A stretch of 6,933 nucleotides of DNA from a virus (taxonomy: Duplodnaviria; Heunggongvirae; Uroviricota; Caudoviricetes). The position numbers and the translations under genes are program-made. The notes beneath the pieces are model-generated. The model saw nothing but the letters and a program-made list of their open reading frames with translations. It made no database searches and was not told the DNA's origin. Where the stretch lies: IMG/VR virus record IMGVR_UViG_2548876700_000016, one strand, 5' to 3'. Below, piece after piece: positions 864 to 6,933 of this stretch. Every line of letters starts with the position of its first letter. Positions within the stretch are counted from its first letter, which is position 1.

Positions 864-1320
864 AGGTTTCCCCCTGACGAATACGGGCGACAAAAATCAG
901 ATGTGCGTGCGGCAGCTGGGCGCGGGCTTCGCGTTCTGTTGCTGCCGTGACGGTAAAGAGTGAGGTTTGTTTTTCCTGGCACTGCATAAAGCGCCAGACA
1001 AAATAAGGGCGTGCGGATACAGCCATGTGAAAGGCTCCCAGATGAATTTTAAGGAGTCTCGCTACTACGCTGTCAAACATGGTGGCGAGACGTAACAGGG
1101 TTGACAGACTGGTCATCTGGAAACCAGCGAGCACAAAGGCTCCCCCGTTACGCCCCGCCATAATGCGGGTATGGGTAGGTTTACGGACACAAAAAAACCG
1201 CTTATCGGATGTGGGCGGCTGTCCGCCAGATGTATTCAGGCTGTCAAACCCGGTCGCCATGTGGGCGACGGGGGAAGCATACAGCCCCGTGATAATTTTT
1301 TGCAAGCGGTTTTTACGCAT
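853..1320 (-). CDS. Hypothetical protein (155 aa) whose C-terminal 57 aa are paralogous to the 67-aa protein at 1313-1516; may alternatively be expressed as a standalone 57-aa protein from the internal ATG at 1026
   Basis: Continuous ORF. ATG at 1320-1318 overlaps the upstream gene's stop by 8 nt with a GGGG SD. The internal ATG at 1026-1024 has its own GGGAG SD about 8 nt upstream. The C-terminal segment ...YFVWRFMQ...ATEREARAQ...LIFVARIRQG aligns with ...YIWRFIAL...ATSEQEARQQ...VFAARIRQG of the 1313-1516 protein, with synonymous codon differences (cgc/cgt, gcc/gca) that support this frame. Confidence 0.45.
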   Translation of the reverse strand: MRKNRLQKIITGLYASPVAHMATGFDSLNTSGGQPPTSDKRFFCVRKPTHTRIMAGRNGGAFVLAGFQMTSLSTLLRLATMFDSVVARLLKIHLGAFHMAVSARPYFVWRFMQCQEKQTSLFTVTAATEREARAQLPHAHLIFVARIRQGETYAQ

Positions 1321-1516
1321 GATGTGACCCCTGACGAATACGGGCAGCGAATACCATCACGCAGCCAGCCGGAGATTGCTGGCGTGCTTCCTGTTCGCTG
1401 GTGGCCTCAATGGTAATCACGCGCGGTTGTGCCGTGCTCAGGGCGATAAAACGCCAGATGTATTTATTCAGGTTGTGCGAGTCCCGCCCTTGCGGGTGTG
1501 TGGTATGATTTCTCAT
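1313..1516 (-). CDS. Hypothetical small protein (67 aa), first gene of the minus-strand small-gene operon
   Basis: ATG at 1516-1514 with GAGGT 4 nt upstream. It is the C-terminal 67 codons of the 354-aa track ORF. Paralogous to the C-terminus of the 853-1320 protein. Sits directly downstream of the divergent control region. Confidence 0.55.
   Translation of the reverse strand: MRNHTTHPQGRDSHNLNKYIWRFIALSTAQPRVITIEATSEQEARQQSPAGCVMVFAARIRQGSHHA
1501..1509 (+). promoter_or_regulatory. Candidate extended -10 promoter element (TGgTATGAT) on the plus strand
   Basis: Sequence tggtatgat fits the extended -10 consensus TGnTATAAT with one mismatch. It lies about 45 nt upstream of the terminator hairpin at 1553-1597 and inside the first codons of the minus-strand gene. 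No convincing -35, which is common for extended -10 promoters. Confidence 0.3.
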
Positions 1517-1552
1517 AGCTACCTCGATACGCTTTCTATCGTTGGTGGTTAG

Positions 1553-1597
1553 AAGCCCTGCGAGTGGTAACGACACTTGCGGGGCTTTGCTTTTTAC
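1553..1597 (+). terminator. Rho-independent terminator-like hairpin, plus-strand specific
   Basis: AAGCCCTGCGAGTG (1553-1566) pairs with CACTTGCGGGGCTT (1574-1587): 14 bp with two G-U wobbles that would be A-C mismatches in the minus-strand RNA. 7-nt loop, followed by TGCTTTTTA. Confidence 0.5.
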
Positions 1598-1612
1598 TGT
1601 ACCTACTGATAT

Positions 1613-1656
1613 TGTACGTACGTAACAGCAATGATAATAGGAGTTACGTACGTACA
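1613..1656. promoter_or_regulatory. Perfect 14-bp inverted repeat, candidate operator for the Arc-like repressor
   Basis: TGTACGTACGTAAC (1613-1626) and GTTACGTACGTACA (1643-1656), separated by 16 bp. The spacer contains the AGGAG Shine-Dalgarno (1639-1643) and the right arm abuts the ATG at 1656. A candidate minus-strand promoter (TACAAT / TTATCA) overlaps the arms. Confidence 0.55.
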
Positions 1657-1847
1657 TGTCAACATTAAAGCGCGATAAATCGCCACGCGGTGAGGGATGG
1701 TCTCCAACCTTCCAAATCAGAATCAGTAAAGAGCTACGCCAACAAGTAAATGAGGCGGCAACTTCTGACGGTCTAACCCTTGGTAACTGGTTTAAAGAAT
1801 TAGCTAGGGCAGAACTAAAGCGGCGCGGCATAGAGCCAAAAGGTTGA
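1656..1847 (+). CDS. Arc/Mnt-family ribbon-helix-helix DNA-binding protein (63 aa)
   Basis: PTFQIRISKELRQQVNEAATSDGLTLGNWFKELARAELKRRG aligns position by position with the P22 Arc core PQFNLRWPREVLDLVRKVAEENGRSVNSEIYQRVMESFKKEG (beta-strand F-x-L/I-R, then two helices). AGGAG SD at 1639-1643, 12 nt from the ATG. Confidence 0.75.
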   Translation: MSTLKRDKSPRGEGWSPTFQIRISKELRQQVNEAATSDGLTLGNWFKELARAELKRRGIEPKG

Positions 1848-1868
1848 ATTTCAGAAGGAGATAAAATA

Positions 1869-2021
1869 ATGAACTGGCTGTTACATACCCTCCCAGGTCG
1901 CATTCTCATTGCACTAATTATTTTATGGATTTTGTACCAATTCGGTTTTTTCGATTCGCTTTGGAAGCCTGACTGTTCCGTTAACCCTGGCGATGTACTG
2001 AAAGGCTGTAAAAATGGCTGA
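1869..2021 (+). CDS. Small single-pass membrane peptide (50 aa), below the ORF-track size cutoff
   Basis: AAGGAG (1855-1860) 8 nt upstream of ATG at 1869. Translates to MNWLLHTLPGRILIALIILWILYQFGFFDSLWKPDCSVNPGDVLKGCKNG, with a hydrophobic helix ILIALIILWILYQFGFF and a short tail with two Cys. Stop TGA at 2019-2021. Starts 21 nt after the Arc-like gene's stop. Confidence 0.55.
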   Translation: MNWLLHTLPGRILIALIILWILYQFGFFDSLWKPDCSVNPGDVLKGCKNG

Positions 2022-2052
2022 TCAGGGTTACTCCCTGTAATGCCTTTAACTG

Positions 2053-2080
2053 GCCCTCTTAAAGAGGGTTGGTTATCTTC
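2053..2080 (+). terminator. Weak terminator-like hairpin downstream of the RHH/membrane-peptide bicistron
   Basis: CCCTC (2054-2058) / GAGGG (2064-2068) with loop TTAAA, followed by a T-rich but interrupted tract TTGGTTATCTT. Confidence 0.3.
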
Positions 2081-2330
2081 GCAGCTCTCTACGTTTTTCG
2101 TCGGAACCTCTGAACCTAAGCAGTGTTGATGTTCAGGAGAACCCGAATACTGTTCGTGTTCGTTGCTCGCCAATTCTCGCGTTTCGCGATAATCAAAATG
2201 ATTCAATGGGTTGAGATGTCCGTACGTTAAACGTACGCGGTTAATTTGTACGTGCGAATTTCGTCGGCTCAAATTCTGCGCAACCCTGATTGAGTTATGC
2301 AAATAGCACGCGGCTAACTCACAAGGATTT

Positions 2331-2362
2331 GAGCGCCCCCAAACGGGGGAGCGCAAAATTTT
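2331..2362. terminator. GC-rich hairpin between the convergent operons, possible terminator for either strand
   Basis: CCCCC (2336-2340) / GGGGG (2345-2349) with loop AAAC, extended by 2-3 flanking base pairs with one mismatch, followed by AAAATTTT. Lies 15-45 nt downstream of the Rha-like stop on the minus strand. Neither strand has a clean U-run immediately after the stem. Confidence 0.3.
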
Positions 2363-2376
2363 AGGCATAAGACGCA

Positions 2377-3087
2377 TCAGCGAATCTCCAACACTGACGA
2401 TGAAGTGATCAGGCTGGCGAACGCATCCATACGGCGGGCAACCTCACGCACCGCATCGCCTGGACTCATGTCATTACGCACCGCCTCATTAAAGGCCGCC
2501 TGTTCGATTTTCTGCATCACTACCAACAGCCCCAATTGCTGTTCGTCTGCGGTACCGCGTTCACCATCAGACAAACCAGCCACGCGGTTTTCAGCGCGGG
2601 CCAGATTGATGTAATGGTGCCGTTGTGCGCCCAGAGCTTTTAATCTGTCGCGGCTTTCGTGATAGCCAGGCAGGTACTCACGGCGGATAGGTTCTGCGGC
2701 GCGGCGCTTAGTGAATGCCTTCGTAACATCCAGTTTGAACTGGTTAATACGCTCAGGATCACGCCCTCGGGTGATACGCAGCAGATAGTCGAGCTGCGGC
2801 TCATTCAGCAGATAACTAATCTCAGGACGCCCACGCTTTCGGCCGGATTTTCCCGATTTCAAATCGGTTAATTCCTTGAGTGACTGACGAGGCAGTGATC
2901 CCAGCTCGCGCAATCTGCTCTGGTGCGATTTAATCGTCGCGCTTAGGCTTTCATGTTGTATTCCGGCTCGCTCTGAAATAACGCGGGAATCGATACGCGG
3001 CTCCGATTTGTGATTAATTAAAATATCGCTCTGGCTGGCTTCAGGGTGAGCGAATCCCTGCCCGTTGAGGGCATTAATCTTTTTCAT
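2377..3087 (-). CDS. Rha-family phage regulatory protein (236 aa)
   Basis: N-terminal region IDSRVISERAGIQHESLSATIKSHQSRLRELG matches the Rha-domain signature D-S-R-x-I-x-E-x-x-G-x-x-H-x-x-L-x-x-x-I as I recall it. Starts 20 nt after the alpA-like stop, so probably co-transcribed. C-terminal region not recognised. Confidence 0.6.
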   Translation of the reverse strand: MKKINALNGQGFAHPEASQSDILINHKSEPRIDSRVISERAGIQHESLSATIKSHQSRLRELGSLPRQSLKELTDLKSGKSGRKRGRPEISYLLNEPQLDYLLRITRGRDPERINQFKLDVTKAFTKRRAAEPIRREYLPGYHESRDRLKALGAQRHHYINLARAENRVAGLSDGERGTADEQQLGLLVVMQKIEQAAFNEAVRNDMSPGDAVREVARRMDAFASLITSSSVLEIR

Positions 3088-3107: not shown

Positions 3108-3392
3108 TTAAGCAGATTTGCGGCTGTATGGGTTATTGACGTTCTCTACTACAGGCGGATTACGAACCCACCAGAGCACATCAGAAAGAAGCCAGGCACA
3201 GCTATTGCGGCCGAAGTGGCAGCGTGGCGGAAATCGTCCTTGCTGCTCCATTTTCCAACGGCTGGAACGGGAAAGGCTGGTGATCTCGCTACATTCTTCT
3301 TCACGGATTCGACGATCGAACTTAAAGCCGTACTCTTCTAAAAGGGTGCGGCGCTGTTCAGGATTAGGCGGGGTAAAAATGGGGTTTTGCAT
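3108..3392 (-). CDS. alpA: AlpA-family (Xis/MerR-like HTH) prophage transcriptional regulator (94 aa from the internal Met; the track ORF extends to 3434)
   Basis: EITSLSRSSRWKMEQQGRFPPRCHFGRNSCAWLLSDVLWWV follows the AlpA pattern (T-G/S-L-S-R-S-T-I-Y...G-x-F-P-x-P...W...E-V/I-x-x-W). GGAGG lies 4 nt upstream of the ATG at 3392-3390; the first Met of the track ORF (3434) has no SD. Confidence 0.75.
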   Translation of the reverse strand: MQNPIFTPPNPEQRRTLLEEYGFKFDRRIREEECSEITSLSRSSRWKMEQQGRFPPRCHFGRNSCAWLLSDVLWWVRNPPVVENVNNPYSRKSA

Positions 3393-3472
3393 GTTGCCTC
3401 CACTGTTTCTAAGTTTGTGGAGGCTAGTTTGCAACCGTTAACACTGGATAGAAATACAGTTGTAAGCATAGA

Positions 3473-3509
3473 AGCATACTGATAATGCTTATAAATATAT
3501 CAGTATGCT
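3473..3509. promoter_or_regulatory. Perfect 12-bp inverted repeat between the orphan gene and alpA; candidate operator or terminator
   Basis: AGCATACTGATA (3473-3484) and TATCAGTATGCT (3498-3509), separated by a 13-nt AT-rich spacer. Lies 22-58 nt downstream of the 309-aa gene's stop and about 80 nt upstream of the alpA start. Confidence 0.45.
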
Positions 3510-3530: not shown

Positions 3531-4460
3531 TTACTGTGTTCTTTCGCTCGGCCTCTTATGCGCATTGTTTAATATTGCTGCTATTTTCGTTTCTGTTTTT
3601 ATTGGCAATTCACCATTGATGAACCAGTCAGGTCTGGCGATCAACTCACGGGCCCAGGCAGAATAGTTAATAGTTCCATCTGTTTTTCTGCAACTCTCAT
3701 TAAAAGCATTTTGCTGCTCTTCTTTGAAGCGCATGGCTACCATTAAAATTTGCTCTCGATTTCTTGCATGTCTTTCAGCAGAATGATGAACAATTTCATT
3801 GCCATTCATCTTATGAGGTTCTACAAATTCAATATCATCTGTCAGCGTGAAATAATCGCCACCACAGTCAAGGAGCCGCCTTATATCCTGAGCAGTAATC
3901 CACAAATCGTTTATAGAGATTTTATTTTTGAATACTTGATCGTCTTCTTCATCATAATCGCTATCTTCGCCAACCATTAAAAGCTGTACGGCGGGATTAT
4001 CAGTTTCTGGATGGCACGGGGTTAATTCAAAACCACTTAGGGCATACTCTCCAAAATTTTGTAGCTCTTCTAATCCGCTCCAAAGACGCCACAACCCATA
4101 AGCCTTACCAATAGAACTGAAACACCCATTTTCTGTATCTTGACCAAATAAAGGCACGTGAATCGTTTCTTCCGTTTCCTCATTGTAATCGCATCTGTAG
4201 AGATGAAGCCTGGAAAATTCAGTAATATTGTTTCCCATCATGGATGTGGTGGAGTTTGCCTTTCTGGTATCGAACCAGTCGCATGCAGATTTGCTGTCAG
4301 TTCTCATATATAAAACAGCGCGAGCATCAAACAAATTTAGACATAAAGATATTTTTTTAGTAACACCTAAATTAATCAGGTCGCTAATCTCACAACCCAG
4401 CAATCTCGACGCACGTTCAATATTGCAGTATTGAAAAGGTATTTTAATGTCGTTAGCCAT
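3531..4460 (-). CDS. Hypothetical protein (309 aa), AT-rich orphan cargo gene of unknown function
   Basis: ORF-track ORF with GAGGG SD 7 nt upstream of ATG at 4460-4458. Visibly more AT-rich than the flanking int and alpA/rha genes. N-terminal stretch IERASRLLGCEISDLINLG looks HTH-like; central acidic stretch EDSDYDEEDD. No P-loop, nuclease or other catalytic motif recognised by eye. Confidence 0.7.
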   Translation of the reverse strand: MANDIKIPFQYCNIERASRLLGCEISDLINLGVTKKISLCLNLFDARAVLYMRTDSKSACDWFDTRKANSTTSMMGNNITEFSRLHLYRCDYNEETEETIHVPLFGQDTENGCFSSIGKAYGLWRLWSGLEELQNFGEYALSGFELTPCHPETDNPAVQLLMVGEDSDYDEEDDQVFKNKISINDLWITAQDIRRLLDCGGDYFTLTDDIEFVEPHKMNGNEIVHHSAERHARNREQILMVAMRFKEEQQNAFNESCRKTDGTINYSAWARELIARPDWFINGELPIKTETKIAAILNNAHKRPSERTQ

Positions 4461-4497
4461 TGCGCTGCCCTCAACGCCCCTAAATTAATTTGCGAGC

Positions 4498-4553: not shown

Positions 4554-5780
4554 TTAATCTCTATTCATTACAGGTAACAGAACCACATTTTGATGATTAC
4601 CCGCAAGAAGTTCTAATCGTTCATACCACTTATTCAGCGCGTCCAGCTTCTCAGGCAAGTACAGACTACGGTTATAAATCGCCATAACTCCCGGCATTGA
4701 GTGCCCCAACAACTGTTCGACAACGTGTGGTGCTATACCCATATTATTCATATGCGTTGCTAAAGTTCGTCTTAGATCGTGCAGTGTCCATGGTTCAGAA
4801 TGCCCCAGCTTTTTATAAACGCTACGGCCCCACTGGCTTACCGCTTCACTGCCTTTAACCGACCCAAGCAAAAGACCGGATAGTTTCGTTTCATCATGCA
4901 GTATTTCAATGAATTTGCGCATGGCATCCGGCACAGGTCTTACAATCTTCTCGCCGCCCTTGCTGTGCTCTTTGGGAACTGTCCAGACCCAGGCATCCAT
5001 ATCCCATTCACTCCACTCTGATAGTCTGGCCTCCTGCGTTCGGCACCCAAACACCATTAAGATTGTCAGTAGCCTGGTGTAGTAAGGCATGAAGCAAGTG
5101 CTAGAGGTAATGGCAGTCCATAAATCGCCAGCCTCTTTATCGTTTAATACCCGATCTTTTTTTGCCTGTTTTTTACCGACATCTGGAATTGTTAAATCTT
5201 CAAGCGCGGTACTCACAGCATAGCGACGAACCCGGCAGAATTTCAGGGCTTGTTTGCACATCTGGAACACATAACCTGCGGCGACTGGCGTTTTCTTTTT
5301 CATCCTGTCAAAGCAGTCAAGCCAGTATCGGGTTTCGCAGTCAGCGAGCGCCATTTTTCCAATGTAAGGGTAAATATGTTTGCGTAGCTCCGCTTTATGC
5401 CGCTCAACATTCGCGCGATTCTCTTCTGCATATTCACGTATCCAGTATTCGATAGCTTCCTGCACCGTGACCGGTTTAAGCGTTTCCTGAGTAGTTAGCG
5501 CCAACTGGTGCTTTGGGTCTTTACCTGAGGCCAGCCACTGGCGGCATTTATCACGCGAGGAACGGGCCTCTTTGAGGCTCATATCCGGGTATCGTCCCAG
5601 AGTAAGACGATGCAACTTCTGCCCGTCGAGTCGGTAAGTAAACACCCAGCTAATACCACCAGCTTTCGTTACCTTGGCACTCAGCCCGGCACCATCAGCA
5701 TAGAACTCAATCTTACTGGCCGGGATGCCATGTAATCCCTTTAACTTCCTGTCGCTCAGTTTGTTAAGTTCGCCAGCCAT
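4554..5780 (-). CDS. int: Tyrosine recombinase/integrase, P4-type with an N-terminal arm-binding domain (408 aa from Met at 5780; the track ORF extends to 5864)
   Basis: C-terminal catalytic signature HDLRRT ... LLGHS ... AIYNRS (R, H-x-x-R, H, Y). N-terminal pattern L-x-D-x-K...DG-x-GL...W...YR...G-K...LG-x-YP-x-x-SL-x-x-AR typical of P4/CP4-type integrases. The Mets at 5864 and 5840 lack an SD; the Met at 5780 has a weak GGTGG. Confidence 0.85.
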   Translation of the reverse strand: MAGELNKLSDRKLKGLHGIPASKIEFYADGAGLSAKVTKAGGISWVFTYRLDGQKLHRLTLGRYPDMSLKEARSSRDKCRQWLASGKDPKHQLALTTQETLKPVTVQEAIEYWIREYAEENRANVERHKAELRKHIYPYIGKMALADCETRYWLDCFDRMKKKTPVAAGYVFQMCKQALKFCRVRRYAVSTALEDLTIPDVGKKQAKKDRVLNDKEAGDLWTAITSSTCFMPYYTRLLTILMVFGCRTQEARLSEWSEWDMDAWVWTVPKEHSKGGEKIVRPVPDAMRKFIEILHDETKLSGLLLGSVKGSEAVSQWGRSVYKKLGHSEPWTLHDLRRTLATHMNNMGIAPHVVEQLLGHSMPGVMAIYNRSLYLPEKLDALNKWYERLELLAGNHQNVVLLPVMNRD

Positions 5781-5964: not shown

Positions 5965-5990
5965 TTCAGGTTAGCTAATTGCTTGATTAA

Positions 5991-6026
5991 AAGGCGCTAC
6001 TCGGCATGGGGAAGCGCCTTTTTTAT
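5991..6026 (+). terminator. Rho-independent terminator (the native fis terminator in its chromosomal context)
   Basis: AAGGCGCT (5991-5998) / AGCGCCTT (6013-6020), 8-bp perfect stem with a 14-nt loop, followed by TTTTTTAT. Confidence 0.7.
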
Positions 6027-6048
6027 AGGTGTCACAAAGGGAGTGACC

Positions 6049-6933
6049 ATGAGAACAGGATGTGAACCGACCCGGTTTGGTAATGAAGCTAAGACCATTA
6101 TTCACGGTGATGCCCTTGCCGAACTTAAAAAGCTACCTACTGAAAGCGTCGATCTGATCTTTGCCGACCCACCGTATAACATCGGTAAAAATTTTGATGG
6201 TCTGATCGAAGCCTGGAAAGAAGATCTGTTTATCGACTGGCTGTTAGAAGTGATTGCAGAGTGCCACCGCGTTCTGAAAAAGCAGGGCAGCATGTACATC
6301 ATGAACAGTACGGAAAACATGCCCTTTATCGATCTCCAGTGCCGCAAGCTTTTTACCATCAAAAGTCGCATCGTCTGGTCATATGACAGTTCTGGAGTGC
6401 AGGCGAAAAAACACTACGGCTCCATGTACGAACCCATCCTGATGATGGTGAAAGACGCAAAGAACTACACATTCAACGGTGATGCTATTCTGGTAGAAGC
6501 CAAAACCGGATCGCAGCGCGCGTTGATCGATTATCGCAAAAATCCTCCACAGCCTTACAATCATCAAAAAGTACCGGGTAACGTCTGGGATTTTCCGCGC
6601 GTGCGTTATTTGATGGATGAATATGAAAACCACCCGACGCAAAAACCGGAAGCCTTACTGAAACGCATTATTCTCGCCTCTTCCAACCCAGGCGATATCG
6701 TTCTCGACCCGTTTGCTGGTAGCTTTACTACCGGTGCCGTAGCCATCGCCAGCGGACGAAAATTCATTGGTATTGAGATCAACAGCGAGTACATCAAAAT
6801 GGGGCTTCGACGGCTGGATGTCGCGTCGCATTACTCTGCGGAAGAACTGGCGAAAGTGAAAAAAAGAAAGACCGGCAACCTGTCAAAACGAAGCCGGTTA
6901 AGCGAAGTTGACCCCGATCTCATTACAAAGTAA
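6049..6933 (+). CDS. yhdJ: DNA N6-adenine methyltransferase YhdJ (294 aa)
   Basis: Recognised as YhdJ from MRTGCEPTRFGNEAKTIIHGDALAELKK... and the DPPY motif (LIFADPPYNIG). AAGGGAG SD 7 nt upstream of ATG at 6049. The track ORF (5983-6933) adds an N-terminal extension that runs through the upstream terminator and is not credible. Confidence 0.9.
   Translation: MRTGCEPTRFGNEAKTIIHGDALAELKKLPTESVDLIFADPPYNIGKNFDGLIEAWKEDLFIDWLLEVIAECHRVLKKQGSMYIMNSTENMPFIDLQCRKLFTIKSRIVWSYDSSGVQAKKHYGSMYEPILMMVKDAKNYTFNGDAILVEAKTGSQRALIDYRKNPPQPYNHQKVPGNVWDFPRVRYLMDEYENHPTQKPEALLKRIILASSNPGDIVLDPFAGSFTTGAVAIASGRKFIGIEINSEYIKMGLRRLDVASHYSAEELAKVKKRKTGNLSKRSRLSEVDPDLITK

Follow-up and report, generated by a model that had tools for sequence, protein, structure and literature searches.

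A hypervariable cassette between int and alpA of phage satellites in Enterobacterales, preceded by a putative RNA leader

The 6,933-nucleotide DNA sequence considered here (the window; IMG/VR virus record IMGVR_UViG_2548876700_000016, Caudoviricetes) carries on its minus strand, between the integrase gene int and the gene alpA, a 309-aa open reading frame (ORF) at positions 3531-4460, the product of which is called X in the following. Comparison with related elements shows that X is an optional, hypervariable accessory cassette in the 5' hotspot of phage-inducible chromosomal islands (PICIs) and capsid-forming PICIs (cf-PICIs), and that it is dispensable for PICIs in general. Variable cargo close to the integrase of a satellite is as such a known kind of feature. 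What appears to be new, as judged from sequence comparisons, is the cassette behaviour of the slot between defined boundaries (an RNA leader on the left and a hairpin in the alpA leader on the right), the association of this slot with the orphan int-alpA RNA, a putative fixed-distance leader, and the existence of a sizeable superfamily of uncharacterised, apparently satellite-restricted proteins for which no structural match was found.

Comparison with the 92%-identical copy in Escherichia coli FDAARGOS_1283 gave a dN/dS of 0.05, and X is therefore a genuine coding gene under purifying selection. It runs in the same direction as both flanking genes, which are int on the left (4554-5780, minus strand, using the start codon annotated in relatives), encoding a P4-type tyrosine integrase with the Pfam domains Arm-DNA-bind_3 and Phage_integrase, and alpA on the right (3108-3392, minus strand, 94 aa; Pfam Phage_AlpA, E=5.5e-10; phrog_2790). 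The initial annotation of the window had delineated exactly this ORF, which lies on the minus strand, and had described an acidic EDSDYDEEDD run, which was confirmed, and a helix-turn-helix (HTH)-like N-terminus, which agrees with the predicted structure. It had also called the gene more AT-rich than its neighbours. This is borne out by a GC content of 39.6%, against 48.3% for int, 51.2% for alpA and 53.3% for the Rha-like gene downstream of alpA, and by a GC content at third codon positions of 35.8%, against 50-55% for the neighbouring genes. The separate acquisition that was suggested on this ground is consistent with the base composition as well as with the cassette boundaries described below.

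The int-alpA slot as a variable cassette

The loci examined comprised E. coli islands at yhdJ and gcd, loci from Photorhabdus, Arsenophonus, Xenorhabdus, Salmonella, Klebsiella and Morganella, and metagenome contigs, including members found at profile E-values of about 1e-9 to 1e-10. Wherever enough flanking sequence was present, int was followed by X in the same direction, and a small HTH gene of the AlpA type came next except in one decayed island. The elements that carry X are cf-PICIs, PICI- or P4-like islands with AntA, Bro, Ash and primase genes, and other integrase islands.

Evidence for cassette exchange comes from islands with nearly the same flanks and different slot contents. Int and AlpA are 96-100% identical (AlpA 96-99%) among islands whose X alleles share 22-33% identity or whose slots hold unrelated proteins, the range over the related slot proteins being 15-33%, and for the yhdJ islands with different slot genes the amino acid identities are 96-99% (Int) and 96-98% (AlpA). 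Between the window and PE15, amino acid identity is 98% for Int and 97% for AlpA, and 22% for the slot proteins, both of which are X. KFu015 and 873.10 have Int proteins that are 100% and AlpA proteins that are 99% identical, with unrelated proteins (X and DUF6387, respectively) between them, and in the pair VG1046 and 1368KP the values are 99% for Int, 74% for AlpA and 27% for the slot proteins, again both X. Besides DUF6387, a 216-aa protein was found as an alternative occupant (E. coli OW1E2). In EcCICFT073 the slot is empty, the gap between int and alpA being 365 bp; this island is a functional PICI that is helper-inducible through AlpA (PMC6092414). The EcCICFT073-type junction is also far commoner than the X allele of the window, as it was detected (at least 80% coverage) in 877 of 5,426 complete E. 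coli genomes, against 12 genomes for the latter. Since slot-less islands and unrelated occupants exist, X is optional cargo and not a core gene.

The 5' end of PICIs has been described as a hotspot of accessory and immune genes (PMC10085698, PMC11364771). A variable cargo slot next to int had also been proposed in the initial annotation, together with a comparison of the intervening gene across related islands; the allele turnover, the unrelated occupants and the empty slot of EcCICFT073 agree with that proposal, and the content of the slot varies instead of being one conserved gene. X resembles other accessory genes of the 5' hotspot in being located between int and the regulatory module, in its variability, dispensability and AT-richness, and in its apparent expression independently of the alpA-driven operon. 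It differs from them in that the family is confined to a single position and lacks a match to known defence models, and in having a structured RNA leader in front, for which there is no earlier description from this hotspot.

Two further observations concern the alternative occupants. DUF6387 genes have been listed directly beside an AlpA-family gene in ICEKp258.2 (PMC10763509) and in a Serratia genomic island (PMC9964261), and the same arrangement is seen in loci L003 and L018, so that DUF6387 is a second, unrelated family with the same positional rule. In OW1E2 (locus L004) 600 bp separate alpA from the gene for the 216-aa slot protein, and this spacer contains a tandem array of about six copies of CATTCAACAG and several GTTCATC-type repeats, which are iteron-like in appearance.

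The X superfamily and its predicted architecture

Searches with X against Pfam, NCBIfam, PADLOC and the PDB sequences gave no match. It does have a full-length match in phrog_7144, a family without assigned function (E=7.2e-40; residues 3-298 of X aligned with positions 4-308 of the 313-position profile). A word-indexed search retrieved 20 close clusters, all from Enterobacterales, including Enterobacter hormaechei (99%), Photorhabdus and Arsenophonus, and an exhaustive HMMER profile search yielded 333 cluster representatives at E<=1e-3, of which 100 at E<=1e-10, nearly all with a length of 270-340 aa. The named superfamily members that were checked all belong to Enterobacterales, and those from Xenorhabdus, Salmonella and Raoultella are all annotated as hypothetical proteins. 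No Pfam domain, including HTH_17, MerR and Phage_AlpA, was detected in 65 diverse members. A profile search of genome contigs recovered four Xenorhabdus loci alone, and the phage collection contained a single record with a relative.

The slot proteins of PE15, KFu015, VG1046 and 1368KP are full-length, very distant members of the superfamily. A single superfamily for all slot proteins can be ruled out, since DUF6387 and the 216-aa OW1E2 protein are unrelated to X, also at the level of profile-profile comparison; alignment of the X profile with a 16-sequence DUF6387 (PF19924) profile by hhalign gave a probability of 0.9%. A relationship between the head of X and AlpA was likewise ruled out at the sequence level (hhalign probability 0.1%). 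EcCIMP1_002 was considered as an experimentally studied X and rejected: the int-alpA gap of EcCIMP1 measures 427 bp and gives no match to the X profile.

In the initial annotation the protein was called an orphan, and a family search was proposed that would include YfjH of CP4-57. The search produced no confident match to a characterised family, and in this sense the description stands, but the label itself is wrong because X is part of a sizeable superfamily (the phrog_7144 match and the 333 representatives mentioned above), which is always found at the int-proximal position. The YfjH lead was refuted. YfjH has a similar size (318 aa) and lies between intA and alpA; its gene, however, is on the strand opposite to intA and alpA, CP4-57 lacks the int-alpA RNA motif that is present in the window, the best BLASTP hit had E=0.16 over 14 aa, and hhalign with a 65-sequence profile gave a probability of 0.7%. 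The place of X beside int, and its similarity to YfjH in size and slot, would fit a homolog of that protein or an accessory or recombination directionality factor of the integrase. We regard this as barely credible: apart from the negative YfjH comparisons and the opposite strand, Int proteins that are 98-100% identical are paired with X proteins of 15-33% identity, with unrelated proteins, or with nothing, and X, showing no co-evolution with Int, is therefore no accessory factor specific to the integrase.

An AlphaFold2 model was built on the family alignment and has a mean predicted local distance difference test score of 81.8. The model suggests an N-terminal winged-helix head of the MerR/Xis type (residues ~11-52; strand, two helices and a long hairpin), followed by an acidic beta-rich domain (residues ~53-162), a disordered acidic linker with the EDSDYDEEDD run (about 163-178), a second small HTH-like unit (about 179-205) and a helical, mildly basic C-terminal domain (about 225-300), in which the best family motif, HHSAERHAxNRE...CRK.DG.INYSAWARE, is located. 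The head is the best conserved part, with a mean pairwise identity of 37% across the superfamily, whereas the beta-domain reaches 16% and the C-terminal part 21%. No overall fold match was found for the model, and the extra domains were also without structural match; compared with winged-helix proteins of the MerR, Xis, AlpA and BldC type, X is much larger and has these additional domains.

Binding of DNA by X is suggested by the predicted fold. X is acidic, with an isoelectric point (pI) of 4.9 and a net charge of -17 (family median pI 5.5, range up to 8.1), and its head is approximately neutral, whereas the pI exceeds 9 for AlpA and Int as well as for the Rha-like protein. CbpM is a protein with a MerR fold that binds protein, and by analogy a protein-binding role of X is equally possible. 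The HTH-type fold, in a protein that is optional cargo, may also bring to mind a host-directed transcription factor, or another moron that alters host physiology or virulence. PICIs are indeed known to carry PerC-family regulators (PMC11773190), and PerC genes are present in loci L024 and L028. For X such a role is improbable, since the extreme allelic divergence between near-identical islands within one species is unexpected for a regulator of conserved host genes; moreover, X is acidic and no result points to a host target.

RNA elements bordering the slot

Directly upstream of X, and passed over in the initial annotation although it is part of the module, lies a match to the int-alpA RNA motif (RF02996; 4477-4545, minus strand), which has a three-helix junction. 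The cmscan score is 61.2 bits, against a gathering score of 35.8, and the match is full length (1-71) and falls within the 93-nt spacer between int and X. The remaining, conserved spacer between the motif and the X start codon (4461-4476, minus strand), delimited by alignment of the leaders, reads CGTTGAGGGCAGCGCA and contains the Shine-Dalgarno-like sequence GAGGG. RF02996 immediately precedes the slot gene in 11 lineages with X and in one locus with DUF6387, and in every intact locus that has the RNA its end is separated from the start codon of the slot gene by a constant 15-18 nt, a spacing that could partly reflect a shared recombination junction. The minimum free energy fold of the element has z=-2.8. 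Among 13 lineages, 10 of 18 base pairs were changed on both sides, which was reached by none of 500 shuffles, and controls in which the partners were shifted gave 0.03-0.11, against 0.385 observed.

No match to RF02996 was obtained at loci in which int overlaps the slot gene or directly adjoins it (L003, L004, Xenorhabdus and L029), and the same holds for L028, CP4-57 and the slot-less EcCICFT073. When sampling was done from the RNA outward in 25 E. coli genomes, the RNA was followed by X alleles in five distinct cases, by DUF6387 once, and in one further case, a decayed island, by an insertion sequence (IS) and then BREX-1. The Rfam entry files RF02996 as a candidate small RNA (sRNA) gene, whereas in the present loci it is an element at fixed distance before the slot gene. 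Both the fixed distance to the start codon and the restriction of the RNA to loci in which a slot gene comes next suggest that it acts in cis on the slot, as a leader or processing element.

The decayed island, in Ec1120 (locus L030, 18774-37000, gcd site), contains an integrase, the int-alpA RNA, IS remnants, a complete BREX-1 system and a WYL (BrxR-like) gene. Its BREX system was considered as proof of defence cargo and downgraded, as IS remnants flank BREX and the rest of the satellite is gone.

On the other side of the slot, comparison and folding of the spacers revealed a hairpin in the alpA leader (3393-3425, minus strand), CCUCCAC...GUGGAGG, in which the alpA Shine-Dalgarno sequence is paired and thereby sequestered. 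Among the E. coli islands it is retained with every kind of slot gene, and the same design recurs in longer form in other lineages. The hairpin may serve translational control of the master activator, and it can be taken as the right boundary of the cassette because conservation between islands resumes there, about 35 nt before alpA.

The int-X and X-alpA spacers yielded no sigma-70-like promoter, and in other lineages the junctions between int and the slot gene are 7-12 nt long or overlapping. The lack of a spacer promoter and these tight junctions, together with the hairpin that each X allele has behind its stop codon, suggest that X is transcribed with int, apart from the AlpA-activated operon, and cotranscription with int is probable. 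The ribosome-binding region of X (4466-4476) is perfectly complementary over 11 nt to the 5' end of the Rha-like gene (3063-3073); this is probably fortuitous, as about 0.3 such matches are expected by chance and the match is not conserved in FDAARGOS_1283.

Possible functions of X

We tentatively favour, at somewhat less than an even chance, the reading that X is a binding-type conflict factor, providing satellite-borne immunity to, or interference with, phages or competing elements. In such a scheme X would be expressed within the integrase transcription unit, behind the int-alpA RNA leader; recognition of a phage-encoded target would fall to its variable body, and the winged-helix head, which is conserved, would give a common output by binding nucleic acid or protein. 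The documented hotspot location, the dispensability and turnover of the gene and its AT-rich composition argue for this role. Abortive-infection proteins of the BstA type have a KilA-N head and sit in the immunity regions of prophages. Like X, BstA is a single mobile-element protein of about 300 aa with an N-terminal domain of a DNA-binding type, an uncharacterised remainder and no enzymatic motif. The resemblance is one of architecture, and X differs from the BstA-type proteins in lacking a PADLOC or Pfam match.

Several points weigh against a role of X in conflict. Location is the one direct argument for a defence function, and the single bona fide defence system found behind int and the RNA is the BREX of the decayed Ec1120 island. 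Comparison with PADLOC-DB v2 gave no family at E<=1, X has no recognisable enzymatic or effector-type domain, and DNA binding is uncertain because the protein is acidic and the head is not basic. Furthermore, the int-X-alpA position is the sole position of the superfamily in the contexts examined. Bona fide defence genes are usually found in other hotspots too, and such strict linkage to one position fits a role intrinsic to the element equally well.

An element-intrinsic role could be that of an allele-specific regulator or sensor of the satellite, analogous to Stl of the Staphylococcus aureus pathogenicity islands (SaPIs), the body of X sensing a helper protein and thereby setting which helpers induce alpA. 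The head would then contact the RNA leader or DNA of the island, for instance close to the alpA promoter. SaPI Stl and the Gram-positive Rpr proteins are, like X, about 250-300 aa long, with an N-terminal HTH, a divergent remainder, a location next to int and alleles that differ between related islands. Strict int-X-alpA synteny across the superfamily is in agreement with this idea, as is the fact that the alternative occupant DUF6387 also always stands beside alpA; whether Gram-negative PICIs have a global repressor, and by which route helpers induce alpA, has been left open (PMC6092414). Allele-specific palindromes in the X-alpA spacer, such as AATTTTCCGGAAAATT in PE15, could be taken as operators. 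The one in the window is a perfect 12-bp inverted repeat, AGCATACTGATA-N13-TATCAGTATGCT (3473-3509, unstranded), that starts 21 nt past the X stop codon, and the X-alpA spacer folds with z=-5.8. Its half-site occurs nowhere else in the window, by which a multi-site operator was ruled out and a 3' hairpin or terminator is favoured over several operators. Each of the other X alleles has a different hairpin after its stop codon, with a GC-rich, terminator-like stem. The repeat is most likely an allele-specific 3' hairpin or terminator of the cassette, and an operator role is possible; its stem is AT-rich and without a T-run, and it was not called as a terminator.

Other evidence also speaks against regulation by X. 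Stl and Rpr show no sequence relation to it, and stl is arranged divergently, whereas X is co-directional with alpA and has a single non-recurring palindrome, no repeated operators having been found. The head of X is not basic, and near-identical islands carry unrelated proteins in place of X. Gram-negative PICIs also work without X (PMC6092414): the idea of a master repressor, raised in the initial annotation beside that of an abortive-infection defence protein, is weakened because slot-less and DUF6387 islands exist, because an EcCICFT073-type junction, without slot gene in CFT073, is far commoner than X, and because the slot-less EcCICFT073 is still helper-inducible through AlpA (PMC6092414). 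We consider a regulatory role unlikely. A more elaborate version, in which X and the int-alpA RNA together form a helper-sensing module of Gram-negative (cf-)PICIs and the X allele decides which phages induce, is quite unlikely. By analogy with Stl, the target of the head would be the leader, as RNA or as DNA, or else the control region of alpA, and a helper protein would titrate the body; this is disfavoured because slot-less PICIs are inducible.

The apparent coupling to int, as indicated by the tight spacing, the overlap seen with other slot genes and the lack of a spacer promoter, can also be envisaged to reflect a function during entry. X could be a counter-defence or establishment factor that is made together with the integrase, for example an acidic decoy or an anti-restriction-like protein. 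The net charge of -17 and the acidic disordered run are in line with this. So are the hypervariability of the slot and its swapping for unrelated families, as in arms-race loci, and cf-PICIs cross genera, where restriction barriers matter. On the other hand, searches did not connect X with any known anti-restriction or anti-defence protein, and the family as a whole is moderately acidic (median pI 5.5, up to 8.1). A role in establishment is unlikely, in our estimate to the same degree as regulation of the satellite by X.

The satellite and its gene neighbourhood

The host gene adjoining the island is yhdJ, which encodes a host-type adenine methyltransferase (5983-6933, plus strand; NF008572, 587 bits). 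On the minus strand the gene order is int, X, alpA and the Rha-like gene (2377-3087), followed by Icd-like genes and a C4 antisense RNA region. In the closest relative, FDAARGOS_1283, yhdJ is followed by int, X, alpA, a hypothetical gene, a HicB-like gene, an Icd-like gene and a primase gene, and then by genes for a major capsid protein, prohead protease, portal, head closure protein, connector, HNH protein, TerS and TerL. This is the layout of a cf-PICI (bioRxiv 10.1101/2022.09.08.507074), and the X-bearing element next to yhdJ is, from its gene content, identified as a cf-PICI satellite. E. coli GN02050 (NZ_CP095505.1) harbours both an EcCICFT073-type PICI and an X-bearing cf-PICI at yhdJ.

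The same gene set occurs in ring form in circular 'plasmid' records of 16-25 kb from Klebsiella and Morganella. Those of K. pneumoniae (NZ_CP069874.1, 15,995 bp) and Morganella (NZ_CP070523.1) were deposited as small non-mobilizable plasmids, and they are circular cf-PICIs (TerS-TerL-int-X-alpA-...-capsid), probably excised satellites. AlpA, the helper-induced activator in Gram-negative PICIs (PMC6092414), is identical between Klebsiella NZ_CP069874.1 and the E. coli island KFu015, which fits spread across genera.

The gene after alpA also varies among near-identical islands and occupies a second swappable position, which is filled by a Rha-like gene in the window (2377-3087) and by Rha-like, AntA/AntB or KilAC antirepressor-type genes elsewhere (also in loci L003-L005, L017-L021 and L025-L027), with no fixed pairing with the X allele. 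A 354-aa ORF at 1313-2377 (minus strand) in the program-made list is probably an artefact: its last ~50-80 residues alone match Icd-like profiles, relatives have a 62-aa gene annotated there, and a 63-aa HicB/YlcI-like gene lies within it on the opposite strand (1656-1847, plus strand). A second Icd-like C-terminus closes the ORF at 853-1320. Between the two Icd-like coding ends are a C4 antisense RNA (1078-1165, minus strand; RF01695, 72.6 bits), its a1/b1 target element (1233-1282, minus strand; RF03163, 46.8 bits, barely over the threshold) and a sub-threshold isrK-like match (1191-1269, minus strand), an arrangement that corresponds to the immI-like C4-icd module of the P1/P7 type in a satellite. 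C4/isrK pairs were also observed in loci L005, L006 and L027.

Implications

The X slot is a well-delimited candidate and not a demonstrated new system. Whatever the function of X, the orphan Rfam RNA int-alpA gains a concrete context, as it is apparently the leader of a swappable slot behind P4-type integrases and not a free-standing sRNA. With the RNA leader on one side and the alpA leader hairpin on the other, a cassette-exchange site has been delimited that can be mined systematically for new cargo. Should X turn out to be a regulator, this would bear on the silencing of Gram-negative PICIs and on the way in which they detect helper phages. If it is a conflict factor, it would represent a new non-enzymatic family without a match among solved structures, carried by satellites that cross genera, and thereby a new candidate for anti-phage or counter-defence biology.

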